A stretch of 64,000 nt of DNA from Ruminococcus sp. (GCA_020024635.1 JAHHTL010000002.1:19139-83138), one strand, 5' to 3'; positions 7,133-16,539 are shown, counted from the stretch's first letter. Program-made: numbers and translations. The notes: a model not told the origin generated them from the letters alone.

Positions 7133-8134
7133 ATGAAAAGACTGGACATTTTAGGAAAAGAGTTGCTTGATGAAGCGAAAAATATAGAATTTCACTATAA
7201 CAAAGAAGGAAGTTTATATGAAATATATGATCAGCTTCTTAAGACATATTGCTACCCAATAAGAGGGCTGGATCAATACAATTTAATTCTGGGATCTGGA
7301 TATGAAGAGCGTTATTGGAAGTGGAAGAGAATCCAAGAGGCAAAGAAAAAAAGAGAATCAGATCAAGTACAATTAGACGCGCAGCAGGAAGAAGAAATAG
7401 ACTACAAAAAGCTTGCCAAAAAATTGGTTGATTTGGTTGATGATGCCGCTATTTCCAGTACAAAAAATATCAATCAGCCAAGTGAAAATCTTGTACGCGA
7501 GTTGATTCTAAGGCATCCGTATCATTTTTATCTCGATGTATGTGAGCAGTTGTATTATGCTCTTATAGATCAAAACACAAAAGAAGAGCTGATTGGGAGT
7601 TTGGACACCACCACAGATCAAGACTTTATAGAAACGATGTACGATTTTACCCAATTTGTTCTCTATATGGAACGACTAACACAGGAAGATATAGAAGGGG
7701 AGCTTTCAGAGGCACTCAAAGAATTAGCCGCTCAGGTAAGGAACAATCTTCCGAAGTATTTAAGCCTCCTTATGTTGGATGAGATCAGTATTTTGATGTT
7801 CAATGAACGGGCTGTGAAGGTTGAGGAACAGGAAGAGTACAGAAAGGAAGCCAGTGATCAGATTAGAAAAGCTGTGGATATCATGACGGATTTCACAGAT
7901 ACAGTAAATGAAGTATATGTGGCATTTTCAGAATTAATGTACGGAGTAATTTTTGACAGAGCCAAAGGAAATGAAGAGAAAATGACTTCCTTGCTTAAGT
8001 CAGAAATCGAACAGACGAAGAAGATCTTAAAAATAGAGAAAAAAGAAAATCAAGAGCAGTTAGGATGCCGAATCTTTTGTGTGCAGGAAAGAACACAAGA
8101 AGATACCTTGTATCAGGTAATAGCTTCCATGTAG
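7133..8134 (+). CDS. hypothetical acidic, all-helical protein
   Basis: Long ORF with the ATG at 7133 preceded by AAAGGAG. The TTG at 7094 lies inside add. No recognisable motif. Rich in E, D, K and L. Confidence 0.55.
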   Translation: MKRLDILGKELLDEAKNIEFHYNKEGSLYEIYDQLLKTYCYPIRGLDQYNLILGSGYEERYWKWKRIQEAKKKRESDQVQLDAQQEEEIDYKKLAKKLVDLVDDAAISSTKNINQPSENLVRELILRHPYHFYLDVCEQLYYALIDQNTKEELIGSLDTTTDQDFIETMYDFTQFVLYMERLTQEDIEGELSEALKELAAQVRNNLPKYLSLLMLDEISILMFNERAVKVEEQEEYRKEASDQIRKAVDIMTDFTDTVNEVYVAFSELMYGVIFDRAKGNEEKMTSLLKSEIEQTKKILKIEKKENQEQLGCRIFCVQERTQEDTLYQVIASM

Positions 8135-8141
8135 GAAAAAG

Positions 8142-8175
8142 AGAAGTCCTCATTTGATGTGGGGACTTCTTTTTT
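8142..8175 (+). terminator. rho-independent terminator
   Basis: Stem AGAAGTCC (8142-8149) / GGACTTCT (8163-8170), followed by TTTTT. Confidence 0.75.
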
Positions 8176-8335
8176 GTATTTTCATACAGAAACAAAATAT
8201 TGACTATATAATAACAATGTTGAACATAGTATAATTTAACTAGATTAATTATTAAAAAAAGAGAAATTATATGCAAAAAGCACTAAAATCGTACAGGTGC
8301 TTTTTCAAAAGAAATAACCGTGAAAGGAGTTTTAC

Positions 8336-9007
8336 ATGAAAGCATATAAGGTGTTGGAAGTTAAGCAAAGTGTGTTTGCGGCAAATGACAAAGAGGCAGA
8401 GGAACTTCGCTTGAAGTTAAAAGAAAAAGGAGTGTTTTTGCTGAATCTAATGAGTAGCCCAGGTTCTGGAAAAACTACAACTCTGCAGCGCACAATCGAA
8501 GCATTAAAAGAGGAAATGAAAATTGGAATCATGGAAGCAGATATTGACTCAGAAGTAGATGCAAAAACCATTTCCGACATGGGGGTAAAAGCCATTCAGC
8601 TGCATACAGGGGGCATGTGTCATCTAGATGCACAGATGACAAGTCAGGGATTAGAAGGTCTAGGAACTGAAGACGTGGATCTTGTAGTTCTTGAGAATGT
8701 GGGAAATTTAGTCTGTCCCGCGGAATTTGATACGGGTGCTTCAAAAAATGCAATGATTTTATCTGTACCAGAAGGACATGATAAACCGCTAAAATATCCA
8801 CTAATGTTTTCCATTTGTGATGTAGTACTGATTAATAAAGTTGACGTTTTGCCATATTTTGATTTTGATATTGAAAAGTGCCGTGAATATGTACATATGC
8901 GTAATCCGAAGGCAAAAGTGATCCCAATTTGCGCACGGACAGGAGAAGGAATGGAAGAATGGTACCGTTGGCTGAAAGAAGAAGTAAATACCTGGAAAGG
9001 GAAATAA
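8336..9007 (+). CDS. hypB: hydrogenase/urease nickel incorporation GTPase HypB
   Basis: Walker A SSPGSGKTT, the CH-type metal motif GGMCHLD, ENVGNLVCPAEFD, and G4 motif INKVD. 223 aa. Confidence 0.9.
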   Translation: MKAYKVLEVKQSVFAANDKEAEELRLKLKEKGVFLLNLMSSPGSGKTTTLQRTIEALKEEMKIGIMEADIDSEVDAKTISDMGVKAIQLHTGGMCHLDAQMTSQGLEGLGTEDVDLVVLENVGNLVCPAEFDTGASKNAMILSVPEGHDKPLKYPLMFSICDVVLINKVDVLPYFDFDIEKCREYVHMRNPKAKVIPICARTGEGMEEWYRWLKEEVNTWKGK

Positions 9008-9036
9008 AGGAATAAGAAGGAAAAGGAGAATGAAGG

Positions 9037-11709
9037 ATGGCACAATTACGTTCTAAAATTGTGAAATTAGCGAAAATGGTGGGTGGTATTGCTGGTGTGA
9101 TGAATAAAATTGATGAAAATGCACCGGAGTATTATGCACTCGAATGTGTGGTCAGTGATGAACAGGCAGATGTGGCGCTGACAATGGGGCTTCGCAAACC
9201 TCGGACGGTGGAATATGTTTCCCAAAAGTGTGGAAAGACAATCGAAGAAACACACAAAATATTAATGGAACTTTCTAAGATTGGTGTATGTAAAGTTTGG
9301 CATGAGGATGGACAAGAATTATTTTGGGTTAATATTTTTGCACCGGGCATGTTGGAAATGATGGTCAACAATAGAGAACAGTTAGAAAAGTATCCACAAA
9401 TTGGAAAGGCATTTGAAGCATATACTCGTACTAGGCTTGCTCCAATGACCCCAATGCTTCCAGAGGGAATGGCGATGATGCGAGTAATTCCGATAGAATC
9501 AGCCATTGAAAACATACCAGGAGTCCAACCATGGGAAAAATTGTCCCACTACCTTGACAAATACGATAAGTTTAGCGTTTCAGACTGTTCTTGTCGCGCA
9601 TCTCGTCGCCATTTAGATGAGGGATGTGGTCATTTGGAACAAGATCTTTGTATACAGATGGGATCAGGGGCGGAATATTATATCAATACAGGTCGAGCCA
9701 GAGAAATTACAAGAGAAGAGGCCGAGGAAATTATCCATCGAGCAGAAGAAATGGGATTGATGCATGAAATGCCACATACAGAAGAATGTGGAGAGGCGTT
9801 TGCTATTTGTAATTGCTGTGGATGTTCTTGTTTTTCTATGCGTATTGCATCGATGTTTAAAACACCGGATGCTATTCGTTCAAATTTCTGTGCAGAAGTG
9901 AATACAGCTAACTGTGTAGCCTGTGGACAGTGTGTGGAAAATTGTCCGGTGAATGCGATTCAATTAGGGCAGCGCTTATGTGCAAAAGAACCGCTACCAG
10001 AGAAAAAGGAACGTACGGTTCGAGATCATATATGGGGGAAAAAAGACTGGAATGTAGATTATCGTGAAAATAGAAAAGACGTAGCGGAAGAAGGAACATC
10101 TCCGTGTAAAACAGCCTGTCCAGCGCATATTGCAGTGCAAGGATATATTAAGCTTGCCAGCCAGGGGCGCTACAAAGAAGCCTTGGAACTGATCAAAAAA
10201 GAAAATCCATTTCCAGCGGTATGCGGTCGAATCTGTCCACATGGCTGTGAGAGTGAATGTACCAGAGGAGATATTGACGAACCGATTGCAATTGATGAGA
10301 TCAAGAAGTTTATTGCAGATCAAGAGTTAGATAGCAATCAGCGGTTTATCCCAGAGAAACGTCATGATTATGGTAGAAAGATTGCGGTTGTAGGAGCAGG
10401 CCCTGCGGGACTTTCTTGTGCCTATTATCTTGCCATTGACGGTTATGCAGTTACAGTGTTTGAAAAGCAAGAAAAATTAGGGGGAATGTTGACCTTAGGA
10501 ATTCCGGCTTTCCGTCTAGAGAAAAATGTAGTAGATGCAGAAATCGATATTTTAAGAGAGATGGGGGTAGAGTTTAAGACAGGAATCGAAGTAGGAAAAG
10601 ATCTTACATTAGATGAGCTAAGAAACCAAGGATATGAGGCTTTCTATCTTGCAATTGGCGCACAAGGAGGACGGTCGCTTGGAGTAGAAGGGGAAAATGC
10701 ACTTGGTGTAATTACTGGGGTAGAGTTTTTGCGAGATGTAAATCTTGGAAAAGAGGTACAACTTTCAGGAAAAGCGGTTGTCATAGGTGGTGGAAATGTT
10801 GCCATTGATGTAGCACGTACAGCGACACGAACAGGAGCATCCGAAGTTTCCATGTTCTGTCTGGAAAGCAGAAAAGAAATGCCGGCTCTAACAGAAGAAA
10901 TAGAAGAAACCTTAGAAGAAGGAATTTCCATTGAAAACAGTTGGGGACCAAAGCGCATTCTTGTGGAAAATGGAAAGGTTACAGGTGTAGAATTTAAGAA
11001 ATGTGTCTCTGTTTTCGATGAGAATGGACGTTTTGCACCAAAATATGATGAAAACAATACGATTATCGTAGAAGCACAAACTGTACTTATATCAATTGGT
11101 CAGTCCATTCAGTGGGGAGGACTTCTAGAAGGAAGTGCTGTAGAAATCAATCCAAATAGAACGGCAAAGGCAGATGCACATACCTATCAAACGGCTCAAA
11201 AGGATGTATTTGTAGGTGGAGATGCCTATACAGGACCGAAATTTGCAATCCATGCGATCGCAGCAGGAAAAGAAGGTGCAATTTCTATCCATCGTTATGT
11301 ACAACCAGGACAAAGTTTGACCTTTGGACGAGATCGACGAGAGTACCATGCCTTTGATAAAAATAACATTGTTGTGGAAGGATTTGACAATACGGCACGT
11401 CAAAAGATAGGTCATAATCCAGCGGCCAAAAATTCTTTTAAAGATGATCGCATTACATTTACAGAAGAACAAATGAAAAAAGAAACAGAACGTTGCCTTG
11501 GATGTGGAGCGGCACAAGTAGATGCGTATATGTGTGTGGGATGTGGACAGTGTACAACAAAATGTAAATTTGATGCTATCCACCTTATACGAAAATACGA
11601 TAATACACCGGACACCTATGAAAAACTTCCAATGAAAATGGCTGCAAATGCCGTGAAACGTGCAGGGAAAATTGTTGCTACGGGTGTAAAAGAAATCGGA
11701 AAAAATTAG
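9037..11709 (+). CDS. multidomain Fe-S flavoprotein: Cys-rich N-terminal module, ferredoxin domain, GltD-like NAD(P)H/FAD oxidoreductase, C-terminal ferredoxin domain
   Basis: Cys-rich stretches CSCRASRRH..GCGH..CNCCGCSC. Ferredoxin motif CVACGQCVENCP. GltD-type cluster CKTACPAH...CGRICPHGCESECTRG. Dinucleotide folds VVGAGPAGLSCAYYL and VVIGGGNVAIDVA. C-terminal CLGCG..CVGCGQCTTKC. Confidence 0.8.
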   Translation: MAQLRSKIVKLAKMVGGIAGVMNKIDENAPEYYALECVVSDEQADVALTMGLRKPRTVEYVSQKCGKTIEETHKILMELSKIGVCKVWHEDGQELFWVNIFAPGMLEMMVNNREQLEKYPQIGKAFEAYTRTRLAPMTPMLPEGMAMMRVIPIESAIENIPGVQPWEKLSHYLDKYDKFSVSDCSCRASRRHLDEGCGHLEQDLCIQMGSGAEYYINTGRAREITREEAEEIIHRAEEMGLMHEMPHTEECGEAFAICNCCGCSCFSMRIASMFKTPDAIRSNFCAEVNTANCVACGQCVENCPVNAIQLGQRLCAKEPLPEKKERTVRDHIWGKKDWNVDYRENRKDVAEEGTSPCKTACPAHIAVQGYIKLASQGRYKEALELIKKENPFPAVCGRICPHGCESECTRGDIDEPIAIDEIKKFIADQELDSNQRFIPEKRHDYGRKIAVVGAGPAGLSCAYYLAIDGYAVTVFEKQEKLGGMLTLGIPAFRLEKNVVDAEIDILREMGVEFKTGIEVGKDLTLDELRNQGYEAFYLAIGAQGGRSLGVEGENALGVITGVEFLRDVNLGKEVQLSGKAVVIGGGNVAIDVARTATRTGASEVSMFCLESRKEMPALTEEIEETLEEGISIENSWGPKRILVENGKVTGVEFKKCVSVFDENGRFAPKYDENNTIIVEAQTVLISIGQSIQWGGLLEGSAVEINPNRTAKADAHTYQTAQKDVFVGGDAYTGPKFAIHAIAAGKEGAISIHRYVQPGQSLTFGRDRREYHAFDKNNIVVEGFDNTARQKIGHNPAAKNSFKDDRITFTEEQMKKETERCLGCGAAQVDAYMCVGCGQCTTKCKFDAIHLIRKYDNTPDTYEKLPMKMAANAVKRAGKIVATGVKEIGKN

Positions 11710-11731
11710 AACTTATGTCTGGAGGAAGAGC

Positions 11732-12073
11732 ATGCACGAACTGGGAGTTATAAGTTCAATGGTTAAGACAATAGAAGAAATCATAAAAGAAGAGGGTTTT
11801 ACAGAAGTACAAAAGCTTGTATTAGAAGTAGGAGAACTGTCTGGAGTAGTACCACATTATATGGAAGTATGCTTTCCGGCAGCGGTTTATAAAACTTTTA
11901 TGGAAAACACGGTATTAGAAATGGAGACTGTACCGGGAATCGTAAAGTGCAAAGACTGTGGAAGAGAATTTAACGCGGTGGCTCAAGATTTTCGTTGCCC
12001 GAAATGTGGGAGCAATGATATGGAAATCCTCTCGGGAAATGATGTGATGATTAAAGAACTTCTATGTAGTTAA
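11732..12073 (+). CDS. hypA: hydrogenase nickel insertion metallochaperone HypA
   Basis: 113 aa. N-terminal MHE nickel site. Zinc site CKDCG...CPKCG. Confidence 0.9.
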   Translation: MHELGVISSMVKTIEEIIKEEGFTEVQKLVLEVGELSGVVPHYMEVCFPAAVYKTFMENTVLEMETVPGIVKCKDCGREFNAVAQDFRCPKCGSNDMEILSGNDVMIKELLCS

Positions 12074-12087
12074 AAGGATAAAAAGAC

Positions 12088-12115
12088 AAAATGGATAGCG
12101 TTTGCTATCCATTTT
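12088..12115. terminator. bidirectional terminator between hypA (+) and hsp20 (-)
   Basis: Hairpin AAAATGGATAGC / GCTATCCATTTT, flanked by an A-run and a T-run. Confidence 0.75.
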
Positions 12116-12128
12116 GCATGATCACAGC

Positions 12129-13300: not shown

Positions 13301-13336
13301 TTTCAAATATTCAAAACAGTGGTTAGGAAAGTTAGA

Positions 13337-14536
13337 ATGAAAGAACAAAAAGACTGGTTTACGGGGATAGATTATTATAATAATTATAAAGAGAAAGAAA
13401 TTCAGGTGGAAAAACTTGAAATTAGCAAAACAATTGATCTCCATGCTCATGTGCAGGTAGAACTGTGGTATGTACTGGATGGAATCGCGAAGATGGATGT
13501 GAATGGGAAAACGTATCCCTTGGAAAAAAATGCATTTTTATGTTTGTATGCGCATCATCTTTATCAAGTTTATGAAATTAAAGAAAGCTTAAAAGTAATT
13601 AGAATTCGATTTTTTATCGGTTTATTTATGCATATGATGTGGGAAAAACATGAATCTGCCACACATGCCCAGTTGGTTTATGAAACCAAACCAATCATTG
13701 ATGGGAACTGTGACAAACATATTAAAGAACTGTTTCTAAGTATTTGCAAGGAACAGGAAGAGGAAAAATTTGGAGCACGCAATATGATTGTTTATCGGGT
13801 GCTGGAATTGCATACGTTATATTGTCGTTATGCTTTGGAGGATACAAGAAAGGTGGATGAAAAAGACATATGGTATATCATTCAACAAATTTTGGTATCA
13901 CCGGCAAAATCTTATAAAATCGATGAAGCAGCAAACAAGCTAGGTTATCATCCCAATTACTTAAATCAGAAATTAAAACAATTGTGCGGAATGACTTTTT
14001 TGGAGCTAAAGCAGTTTGCGAAGGTATTAAATGTATGTGCACTGCTCCATTTTGAAGAACTGGAAATTTCCTATATTATTGAGCAATTAGGGGATTGTTC
14101 CAAGGCAACTTTTTACCGTATTTTTGAAGAATATACAGGGATGAGTCCAACAACTTACCAGAAGAAAATGATTTTAGACCAAGAGCATTATTATCATGGT
14201 CAAGATCGCTTTTTGAAAATACTTCAATATTTGTCATTTTACTTTACCGGCAACATTACAATACAGGATTGTGCACAAGAATTAAATATCAAAGAATATG
14301 CAATTGAACAATTATTAAAGGATTACGATCTAACTTTTAAAACATTACTAGAAGATATTCGGTTTCTATATGCAAAAACCTTAATTGAGACAACAGACAT
14401 CCCACTGACAACTATTGCAATGGATTGCGGATTTGGTAGCTTGTCTACCTTTCAGAGAGTATTTCAAAATAAACGAAATTGTATGCCTAGTGAATATCGA
14501 AAAAAGATAAAAACCTTAAAAAATGAGAATAATTAA
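13337..14536 (+). CDS. AraC family transcriptional regulator with cupin sensor and two tandem AraC-type DNA-binding modules
   Basis: Cupin-like HAHVQVELWYVLDG...YAHHLYQV. First AraC module ends ...FYRIFEEYTGMSPTTYQKK. Second module ends ...FQRVFQNKRNCMPSEYRKK. I chose the ATG at 13337 over the GTG at 13319. Confidence 0.8.
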   Translation: MKEQKDWFTGIDYYNNYKEKEIQVEKLEISKTIDLHAHVQVELWYVLDGIAKMDVNGKTYPLEKNAFLCLYAHHLYQVYEIKESLKVIRIRFFIGLFMHMMWEKHESATHAQLVYETKPIIDGNCDKHIKELFLSICKEQEEEKFGARNMIVYRVLELHTLYCRYALEDTRKVDEKDIWYIIQQILVSPAKSYKIDEAANKLGYHPNYLNQKLKQLCGMTFLELKQFAKVLNVCALLHFEELEISYIIEQLGDCSKATFYRIFEEYTGMSPTTYQKKMILDQEHYYHGQDRFLKILQYLSFYFTGNITIQDCAQELNIKEYAIEQLLKDYDLTFKTLLEDIRFLYAKTLIETTDIPLTTIAMDCGFGSLSTFQRVFQNKRNCMPSEYRKKIKTLKNENN

Positions 14537-14604
14537 ACTTAAAATGAATGTTAGAATGCTCTATTGCGAGTTATAATGTATTTAGATAAATTTAGGAGGT
14601 TCTT

Positions 14605-16539
14605 ATGAAGTATAATAATTTGTTTCAACCTTGTGATATACGTGGGTTGCATATGAAAAATCGTATTATTCTTCCGGCCATGGGAACAAGAATGGCTGGA
14701 GAGCATGGAGAGATCACACCTCGCTTGATCGCGTATCATAAAGCGCGTGCAAAAGGTGGTTGCGGGTTAAATATTGTGGAAGTAGCAGCGGTACATACAC
14801 CGAGTGCACCAGCACATTTCGTGTCTATTAGTGAGGATTCCCATATCGAAGGACATAAGAAACTAACCGATGCGATTCATGAAGCCGGTGGAAAAGCAGG
14901 AATTCAATTATGGCAGGGAAGTATTGCAGTAGGGATGGATCCAAAAGCGAAAATGTTTGTAGTAGATGACATGAATTTTGGAGAATTTACATTACCGGCA
15001 ATTACAAAAGAAGAAATCAAGGAAGTCGTAGAAGCATACGGGAAAGCGGCCAAAAGAGTTGCACTTGCGGGGTATGACTGCGTAGAATTTCATTGTGCAC
15101 ACAATTACCTGCCACATTCTTTCTTAAGTGGTGGACTAAACCATAGAACAGATGAATATGGCGGAAGTTTTGAAAATCGTTCTCGTTTTCCATTAGAATG
15201 TATTCGTGCAATTCGTGAAAACATGCCAGAGGATATGCCATTGTTTATGCGTATTGATGCCCATGACGACTGTTTGCCAAATGGATTGACAATTGACGAA
15301 GTGATTGCATTTTGTAAGCTTGCTCAAAAAGAAGGCGTAGATGTTTTGGATGTATCAAGAGGAAATATCATTACATCAGCTACTGTTTACGAGGTACCGC
15401 CATTAGATGTACCAAGAGGATTTAATGTTGCAAATGCAGAAAAGATTCGTAAAGAAACAGGGATGTTAACGATTGCTGTTGGAAGAATTAATACTCCAGA
15501 GCAGGCAGAAGAGATCCTTGCAAAGAAAAAAGCAGATTTTGTAGTTATAGGAAGAGGACAGCTTGCGGATCCAGAATTCTCTATAAAGGCAGAGGAAGGA
15601 AGAGCACAAGATATTGTACATTGTGTTGGATGTAATCAGGGATGTTACGATGGATTCTGTGATTTGGAAAATCGCTCGTTTATTACTTGCCTGCGAAACC
15701 CAATGATCGGACATGAAGAAGAGTGGGAGATCAAATCTACAGAGGCTCCGAAACGTGTTGCGATTATCGGAGGAGGTATGGCAGGATTAGAAGCAGCTAA
15801 AATTTTAAAACAAAGAGGTCATCAGCCAGAAATTTTTGAAGCAGGAAGTCAGTTAGGCGGGCAGATTATTACAGCAGGAAAAGCGCCTGGAAAACAAGAA
15901 ATGGAAATGGCAGCACATGCATTTGGAAAACAAGTTGAATCCATGGGAGTTCCAGTACACTACAACACAAAAGTTGATGCAAAGATGTTAAAACAGGAAG
16001 TATTTGATGAAGTAATCATTGCGGCAGGTGCGAAACCAGTGGAAATCTCGCTTCCGGGAGCAGAAAAAAAATGCATGGCAGATTCTCATTCCGTATTAAA
16101 TGGAACGAAAGAAGTAAAAGGTCGTGTATGTGTAATAGGTGGAGGACTTGTAGGCCTTGAGGTGGCTGACTACTTAGCGGAAAAACAGCATGAAGTTCAC
16201 GTTGTTGAGATGATGGATGAAGCTGGAAAAGATTTAGGAAACTTACGAAAAATCTGTGTAAACGAAAAGCTCAATAAACTTGGGGTAGACATACAGTGTA
16301 ATAGTAAATGTGTTGCTGTTACAGAGGAAGGTGTACAGATTGAGACAGATGGAAAAATAAAAGTAGTCAATTGCGACAGTGTAGTTATTGCAATTGGAGC
16401 ACGTTCTCGGGATATGGAAGATGTGAAAACATATTGCGAAGAAAATAAGATTCCGGTTCATGTTATCGGTGATGCAAAAAAAGCAAGAAGAGCATTGAAT
16501 GCAATAGAGGAAGCATTCGAAGTTGCGCGTACAATATAA
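14605..16539 (+). CDS. NADH:flavin oxidoreductase of the 2,4-dienoyl-CoA reductase / 2-enoate reductase family (OYE barrel + 4Fe-4S + FAD/NAD domain)
   Basis: OYE-like MKNRIILPAMGT, HCAHNYLPHSFLS and RTDEYGGSFENR. Cys cluster CVGCNQGCYDGFC...C. Rossmann motifs IIGGGMAGLEAA and VIGGGLVGLEVA. Confidence 0.85.
   Translation: MKYNNLFQPCDIRGLHMKNRIILPAMGTRMAGEHGEITPRLIAYHKARAKGGCGLNIVEVAAVHTPSAPAHFVSISEDSHIEGHKKLTDAIHEAGGKAGIQLWQGSIAVGMDPKAKMFVVDDMNFGEFTLPAITKEEIKEVVEAYGKAAKRVALAGYDCVEFHCAHNYLPHSFLSGGLNHRTDEYGGSFENRSRFPLECIRAIRENMPEDMPLFMRIDAHDDCLPNGLTIDEVIAFCKLAQKEGVDVLDVSRGNIITSATVYEVPPLDVPRGFNVANAEKIRKETGMLTIAVGRINTPEQAEEILAKKKADFVVIGRGQLADPEFSIKAEEGRAQDIVHCVGCNQGCYDGFCDLENRSFITCLRNPMIGHEEEWEIKSTEAPKRVAIIGGGMAGLEAAKILKQRGHQPEIFEAGSQLGGQIITAGKAPGKQEMEMAAHAFGKQVESMGVPVHYNTKVDAKMLKQEVFDEVIIAAGAKPVEISLPGAEKKCMADSHSVLNGTKEVKGRVCVIGGGLVGLEVADYLAEKQHEVHVVEMMDEAGKDLGNLRKICVNEKLNKLGVDIQCNSKCVAVTEEGVQIETDGKIKVVNCDSVVIAIGARSRDMEDVKTYCEENKIPVHVIGDAKKARRALNAIEEAFEVARTI

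Follow-up and report, generated by a model that had tools for sequence, protein, structure and literature searches.

An IsrA-Type Flavoprotein Encoded Between hypB and hypA

The genes hypB, X, and hypA, found in a 64,000-nucleotide (nt) stretch of a Ruminococcus sp. genome (GCA_020024635.1 JAHHTL010000002.1:19139-83138; hereafter the window), appear with moderate probability to form one operon that encodes an Fe-S flavoprotein reductase of the IsrA family (“clade 9”) and, with it, a HypB/HypA metallochaperone pair of its own. HypA and HypB insert nickel into [NiFe]-hydrogenase, and into urease in Helicobacter. In the window, they bracket X, an oxidoreductase of 890 amino acids (aa) that uses NAD(P)H and flavin adenine dinucleotide (FAD), with spacings of 29 nt between hypB and X and 22 nt between X and hypA, and a GGAG-type ribosome-binding site lies in each gap. 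A first-pass annotation had proposed this gene order and these gaps, and both the open reading frames (ORFs) and their domain matches agree with it (Table 1). The terminators that it placed on both sides of the module were also recovered as hairpins, of which the right-hand one probably works in both directions because it is palindromic. A promoter scan called no sigma-70-like promoter on the plus strand at 8176-8335, upstream of hypB. The arrangement is non-textbook, as that annotation remarked, but it had already been published in 2023 (PMC10134865); X is a further member of the family then described for IsrA, the putative isoprene reductase of Acetobacterium wieringae ISORED-2/strain Y, and neither its architecture nor its pairing with hypAB is new.

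The isoprene-induced operon of Acetobacterium wieringae ISORED-2 consists of isrA (901 aa), hypA, hypB, a gene for a 350-aa ferredoxin, and a second hypA, and lies in a genome with no [NiFe]-hydrogenase and no hypCDEF (PMC10134865). IsrA has an unannotated N-terminus of ~270 aa that is homologous to the 350-aa ferredoxin of the operon, four canonical [4Fe-4S] sites, and a fifth site, “Cys6” (“cluster V”), with the CxC motifs C180/C182 and C254/C256, which was proposed as a nickel site (PMC10134865). X follows the same plan as a ~900-aa fusion with an unannotated N-terminus, a ferredoxin motif near residue 290, PF14691 and PF07992 domains, and a C-terminal ferredoxin motif. Its Cys6 has the CxC motifs C184/C186 and C258/C260, shifted by four residues, and its N-terminal domain is likewise homologous to standalone 4Fe-4S “ferredoxins”. 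Further points of likeness are that hypA and hypB adjoin X, that the host has no [NiFe]-hydrogenase match, and that DUF5692 is linked to the family. Among the 988 published clade 9 homologues, the neighbor frequencies are 0.73 for HypA, 0.56 for HypB, 0.40 for DUF5692, and 0.21 for TetR (PMC10134865).

The differences concern gene order (hypB-X-hypA vs. isrA-hypA-hypB-fdx-hypA), protein length (890 vs. 901 aa), and the DUF5692 gene of the host, which is on another contig than X. Compared to the isoprene-specific isr operon (cluster I), the X locus has no second hypA and no adjacent gene for a 350-aa ferredoxin; its two hairpins enclose hypB, X, and hypA and no further gene. For IsrA homologues outside cluster I, the authors of the IsrA study concluded that the substrates are other than isoprene (PMC10134865). 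In Pelotomaculum with isoprene, hypA was upregulated 373-fold and hypB 585-fold (bioRxiv 10.64898/2026.02.25.708027); the two Pelotomaculum preprints of 2026 report strong isoprene induction of hypA and hypB and contain no biochemistry.

Table 1. Positions of the hypB-X-hypA module, the hairpins at its boundaries, and the parts of X, counted from the first nucleotide of the window.
Feature	Position	Strand	Description
hypB	8336-9007	+	ORF, 223 aa; G3E GTPase metallochaperone
X	9037-11709	+	ORF, 890 aa; NAD(P)H/FAD Fe-S oxidoreductase, IsrA-type (clade 9-like)
hypA	11732-12073	+	ORF, 113 aa; metallochaperone of the X-linked HypA lineage
Hairpin, terminator-like	8137-8175	+	17-pair stem followed by a T run; 3' of the upstream 333/346-aa gene; left module boundary
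Palindromic hairpin	12086-12117	called on minus strand for hsp20	between hypA and the convergent hsp20; right module boundary
X, N-terminal domain (aa 1-255)	9037-9801	+	winged-helix-like, then Cys-rich subdomain
X, candidate catalytic/metal site	9586-9831	+	Cys6 (C184, C186, C205, C258, C260, C265); from alignments and 80 full-length homologues
X, ferredoxin half-motif CxxCxxCxxxC (C293-C303)	9913-9945	+	Pfam Fer4 at aa 287-309; Cys invariant
X, GltD/NfnB-like core	10099-11268	+	Fer4_20 at aa 355-432 (two [4Fe-4S]); FAD/NAD(P)-binding at aa 448-744
X, C-terminal ferredoxin-type Cys motif (C820, C823, C833, C836, C839, C843)	11494-11565	+	read from the sequence

Domain Architecture of X

Three Pfam domains were recognized in X, namely Fer4, Fer4_20 (PF14691), and Pyr_redox_2 (PF07992). 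In sequence searches, residues 336-756 align to the PDB entries 9bov_A, 8oh5_C, 9n5u_A (NfnA), 4ylf_B, and 5jca_L with E values of 1e-57 to 1e-110, and over this segment X resembles the NAD(P)H-FAD-2x[4Fe-4S] modules of the NfnB/GltD/DPD type (4ylf_B, 5jca_L, 9n5u_A, and 8oh5_C). It differs from them in its additional 335-aa N-terminal part and C-terminal ferredoxin motif, and in that no NfnA or GltB partner gene adjoins it. X falls below the cut-off of every NCBIfam equivalog, the best being PRK12771 (469.6 vs. 516). The PDB search matched the GltD/NfnB core only, with no PDB sequence match for the N-terminal region beyond it, and in the N-terminal 318 aa the Pfam and NCBIfam models identified one Fer4 motif and nothing else, which leaves the first 255 aa uncovered. 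In the source annotations, the names are all generic.

When 1.8 billion representative proteins were scanned in full, 2,404 relatives of the N-terminal region were retrieved, including fusions of 800-945 aa like X and many standalone “4Fe-4S binding proteins” of ~354-390 aa. The standalone homologues share 24-31% identity with X over residues ~25-312 and carry two C-terminal ferredoxin motifs. Across fusions and standalone forms, C184, C186, R187, C205, C258, C260, C265, and the ferredoxin cysteines are invariant, and C197 is near-invariant. Within the X clade, the residues G196-C197-G198-H199, H243, C261, C263, and R269 are additionally invariant, with H199 being variable in the standalone homologues. 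Kronen et al. likened the Cys6 of IsrA to the A-cluster of acetyl-CoA synthase (ACS) and to double-cubane/P-cluster-type sites (PMC10134865). What X has in common with these is that its Fe-S chain ends in a Cys-rich site, with a proposed nickel beside or within an Fe-S cluster, but no sequence or fold similarity to them was detected by Pfam or by Foldseek against the PDB. A further difference from the carbon monoxide dehydrogenase (CODH)/ACS system is that maturation there involves CooC/AcsF, as opposed to the HypAB proposed for X.

The AlphaFold model of residues 1-345 has a predicted local distance difference test score (pLDDT) of 75.7. Among the top 50 Foldseek matches of this model listed against the PDB, there were only weak matches to proteins that contain a winged helix-turn-helix (wHTH), most of them transcription regulators aligned over residues ~40-110, and no match for the Cys-rich subdomain. 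These matches, together with weak TrmB/MarR matches in the standalone homologues, could be taken to suggest that the winged-helix and Fe-S domain at the N-terminus is a redox- or metal-sensing DNA-binding module and that X is a hybrid of regulator and enzyme. We regard this as highly improbable, as the Foldseek matches are all weak (E > 1e-3, template modeling (TM) score <= 0.22), the domain is part of a fusion with an electron-input module of 550 aa and with two additional ferredoxin motifs, and in relatives the operon comes with TetR or GntR regulators that are separate proteins.

Sequence Features of HypB and HypA

HypB scores 255.1 bits on TIGR00073 (cut-off 121.2) and carries the P-loop SSPGSGKT, the CH motif, and the motif ENVGNLVCP, with the metal site CH...C. 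It is of the short type, in which the N-terminal CxxCGC and the His-rich metal site are both absent. HypA scores 113.3 bits on PF01155 (cut-off 28.9) and has the N-terminal MHE, which is the Ni site, as well as the CxxC...CxxC zinc site. On the equivalog model TIGR00100, its score of 80.6 bits is under the cut-off of 88.1, which fits a divergent sub-lineage of X-linked HypAs. The motifs are kept in the orthologues at related loci, where HypB has the CH motif in 52 of 53 cases and ENVGNLVCP in all 53, and HypA has an MHE-like start in 65 of 67 and the two CxxC in all 67. The pair resembles the HypA and HypB of [NiFe]-hydrogenase in having a G3E GTPase with a CH...C site and a HypA with the MHE Ni site and a zinc ribbon. 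It differs from [NiFe]-hydrogenase maturation in that the host has no matches to the hydrogenase large subunit, HypD, or urease, and in that the X-linked HypAs form a separate lineage. The host genome has a single HypA above cut-off, and no G3E GTPase other than the HypB of the module clearly exceeds its cut-off.

Nickel Proteins in the Host Genome

The host assembly (2.14 Mb in 86 contigs, 96.6% complete, not closed) was searched as a whole for other nickel proteins. There was no match to the [NiFe]-hydrogenase large subunit (PF00374), HypD (PF01924), CODH/prismane, LarA, or acireductone dioxygenase (ARD), and no urease above cut-off. The first-pass annotation had reported that the window is free of hydrogenase, CODH, and urease genes; this was confirmed, and the absence of these genes and of hypD extends to the whole assembly. 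The same search bears on one of the two readings offered by that annotation, in which X serves as redox partner to a Ni enzyme encoded elsewhere ([NiFe]-hydrogenase, CODH, or urease) that HypAB mature. Modules of the GltD/NfnB type do often feed partner enzymes, but this reading is unsupported because none of the known Ni enzymes was found in the host genome, and the [NiFe] large subunit likewise has no match in 13 of the 21 module-bearing genomes of the sample described below; we consider it very unlikely indeed.

Conservation of the Arrangement and HypA Phylogeny

A scan of GTDB species genomes, in which neighbors were located by tblastn, yielded 80 loci with X at 64-90% identity. The order hypB-X-hypA is present in about 53 of them and X-hypA in 67. 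Because it recurs in most related loci, the arrangement is, on this comparative evidence, far from chance. The loci belong to Lachnospiraceae (Lacrimispora, Anaerocolumna, Blautia, and Butyrivibrio), Oscillospiraceae, Ruminococcaceae, Caproiciproducens, and Eubacterium; outside these taxa, there are one Anaeroplasmataceae metagenome-assembled genome (MAG) and one Spirochaetia MAG.

The first-pass annotation had asked how often hypB-X-hypA occurs in Clostridia, and a second survey, based on an even sample of 400 Clostridia species, also found the order to be conserved. HypA is above cut-off in 59 of the 400 genomes, and 24 genes for fusion-type X occur in 21 genomes of the sample. For 21 of these 24 genes, the immediate neighbor on the same strand is hypA, which holds to an N-terminal-domain identity as low as 36-40%, and in three genomes (G097, G336, and G150) hypA is located upstream of X rather than downstream. 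The three exceptions are a contig-end fragment and two genes that are second paralogues, their genomes having an X-hypA pair already. More generally, X copies without hypA tend to be extra paralogues in genomes with another X-hypA pair. A Clostridiaceae MAG encodes tandem full-length X paralogues (L072:3986-6679 and L072:7194-9863), and neither hypA nor hypB lies within 4 kb of them. The 13 X-hypA genomes mentioned above have no PF00374 match, and in five of the eight genomes with both X and PF00374, the gene for the hydrogenase large subunit has another hypA next to it.

A tree of 58 HypA sequences, including 20 X-linked and 26 hydrogenase-linked HypAs, places all 20 X-linked HypAs on one side of a branch (support 90/37), and a split with support of 99/97 sets the X-linked HypAs apart from 24 of the 26 hydrogenase-linked ones. 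Two subclades of X-linked HypAs mirror the two similarity groups of X. Three HypAs that adjoin neither X nor a hydrogenase (L131-L133; G285:C14, G097:C15, and G336:C33) are the sister of the X-linked clade (93/93); G097 and G336 each also have a second X paralogue without a neighboring hypA. The tree also contains a divergent HypA-like lineage (L134-L138; G184, G211, G068, G237, and G032), which occurs in ~5 more genomes of family f34. Its members match PF01155 from profile position 7 only, with 58-68 bits, and form their own long branch (100/100), and their host genomes have neither a [NiFe] large-subunit match nor X.

These patterns bear on the possibility that HypAB serve some other nickel protein, or the storage and homeostasis of nickel in general, and that their position around X reflects co-regulation only. 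Novel nickel enzymes could escape family searches, and the assembly is 96.6% complete and not closed. Nevertheless, we judge this explanation to be improbable, as the adjacency is kept across many families and down to ~36-40% X identity, including in the rearranged G097, G336, and G150, the division of HypA into two subclades follows that of X into two groups, and hydrogenase-bearing genomes keep a separate hypA for the hydrogenase.

Proposed Metal Delivery to X

The other reading of the first-pass annotation, that HypAB deliver metal to X, is favored by the comparative evidence. It is favored because the adjacency persists to low X identity, because the X-linked HypAs form their own lineage, and because in hydrogenase-bearing genomes the hydrogenase usually has another hypA next to it. 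That annotation had stated that a hydrogenase/hyp locus elsewhere in the genome, together with a lack of conservation of the order in relatives, would argue against a special relation of HypAB to X; the genome search was negative and the order is conserved. Judging from these comparisons, HypAB serving X appears to be the best-supported explanation, and it coincides with the published, unproven hypothesis for IsrA.

Several observations weigh against this explanation, or against the assignment of the module as a whole. No member of the IsrA family has been purified, and nickel content and substrate are unproven (PMC10134865, bioRxiv 10.64898/2026.02.25.708027). X is tentatively placed in clade 9 with IsrA (VUZ27132.1) by its shared architecture and neighbors, and a single hypB-X-hypA transcript is suggested by gene spacing only. 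The branch that unites the X-linked HypAs has weak support in the SH-like approximate likelihood-ratio test (SH-aLRT; 90/37). In the host assembly, there was no match to the nickel importers CbiM/NikM, NiCoT, and HupE/UreJ or to the regulator NikR, and therefore a nickel requirement in the host would need an unrecognized uptake route, as the known importers were not found. Finally, X copies without a neighboring hypA retain all candidate ligands. In a comparison of hypA-linked and unlinked copies among 80 full-length homologues, the two sets are distinguished at R56 and N111 only and at none of the candidate ligands, and thus there is no residue signature that ties the site to HypA.

The last two points are also consistent with a different role of the chaperones, in which HypAB handle zinc, iron, or cobalt, or assemble the Fe-S cluster at Cys6, and X is a pure Fe-S flavoenzyme. 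HypB and HypA also bind zinc, and Cys6 is invariant in the standalone homologues of ~360 aa as well, which in the class sample do not lie beside hypA. However, the HypA MHE and the HypB CH...C are strictly kept in X-linked orthologues, the HypA-free X copies are usually found in genomes with another X-hypA pair, and H199 distinguishes the X clade from the standalone homologues. We therefore consider the use of another metal, or of none beyond Fe-S, to be unlikely.

Neighboring Genes and a Possible Split Gene Set

The X loci of relatives provide several candidate partner genes. A divergent gene for a GntR/FCD regulator is located upstream of hypB in 36 of the 80 loci (e.g., L012:2345-3088). The regulator listed as common in the IsrA study is TetR (PMC10134865). 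FCD domains usually sense carboxylates, and the lineages with the GntR/FCD regulator may therefore have an acidic substrate. A DUF5692 gene is directly 3' of hypA in 17 of the 80 loci, and a polytopic membrane protein of ~285 aa, for which there is no Pfam model, is encoded in 13-15 of the 80.

In the host, both membrane proteins are encoded on another contig (C24; L082:3649-8823), in an operon that faces a divergent TetR gene. The order in this operon is a gene for a 284-aa membrane protein (mem284), a gene for an FAD protein like CrtI/carotenoid isomerase (510 aa), a gene for an FNR-like reductase of the FAD/NAD/[2Fe-2S] type (395 aa), and DUF5692. The 284-aa membrane protein has 63% identity to the membrane-protein family that neighbors X elsewhere. 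Two relatives (L003 and L015) have mem284, the CrtI-like gene, the FNR-like gene, hypB, X, and hypA contiguous and co-directional. Five further loci (L045, L046, L055, L057, and L062) have the CrtI-like and FNR-like genes beside X, and three of these (L046, L055, and L057) have mem284 too. In the sample of 400 Clostridia, DUF5692 is present in 15 genomes; X is found in 11 of these, and DUF5692 adjoins the module in 8 of those 11. The host hypB-X-hypA thus looks like half of a larger gene set that is split over two contigs, and the fused gene sets of relatives give concrete partner genes as well as a hint on the class of substrate.

The best PDB matches of the CrtI-like protein on C24 are the carotene desaturases 4rep and 4dgk, and there was no sequence match at E<=0.01 to solved fatty-acid isomerases. 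Taken together, the neighbor links point to a hydrophobic polyunsaturated substrate, and the membrane proteins are more likely to be involved in substrate handling than in nickel import. It is possible that DUF5692 is the missing nickel importer, but this is not favored because the gene is in a TetR-flanked operon with the CrtI-like gene and because it also follows X copies that have no hypA (L067 and L069).

The genes that surround the module in the window differ from these partners. The gene directly 5' of the module (7133-8134) encodes an acidic protein of 333 aa with no Pfam or NCBIfam match. It was considered as a member of the module and rejected, since it shows no relationship to the membrane proteins encoded beside X in other genomes. 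On the 3' side, an AraC-type regulator and a 644-aa gene (13319-16539) are located 1.2 kb from the module, past hsp20 and a YgjP-like gene, and are not among the conserved neighbors of X in the 80 loci.

Proposed Function and Significance

A possible catalytic route can be proposed for X. Electrons from NAD(P)H would pass through FAD to the two [4Fe-4S] clusters of the GltD/NfnB-like core of X, and then through a ferredoxin-like pair, formed from the motifs at residues 293-303 and 820-843, to the N-terminal Cys-rich site. During maturation, HypB, driven by GTP, and HypA would load nickel into this site or next to it. The mature site may then hydrogenate a C=C bond in a substrate that would be hydrophobic and most likely a conjugated diene. 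This substrate is probably not isoprene specifically, because the second hypA and the gene for the 350-aa ferredoxin are missing.

In a wider and more tentative proposal, to which we assign a low probability, X would be a Ni-Fe-S enzyme of gut-type Clostridia that hydrogenates conjugated C=C bonds in long hydrophobic molecules, and it would act in one pathway with the CrtI-like, FNR-like, DUF5692, and 284-aa membrane proteins. Conjugated fatty acids and lipids of the polyene or isoprenoid type would then be examples of candidate substrates. If this proposal is true, X would represent a third class of HypAB client and could be the enzyme, sought for a long time, that carries out the reductase step in lipid biohydrogenation.

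The host is a minimal case, with one X, one HypA, and one HypB, and with no other known Ni enzyme, importer, or NikR found, and any nickel phenotype in this organism should trace to X. Hundreds of anaerobes, many of which come from gut and rumen samples, encode IsrA-type proteins. If these proteins receive nickel from HypAB, they would constitute a new class of nickel enzymes, which hydrogenate unactivated or conjugated C=C bonds.

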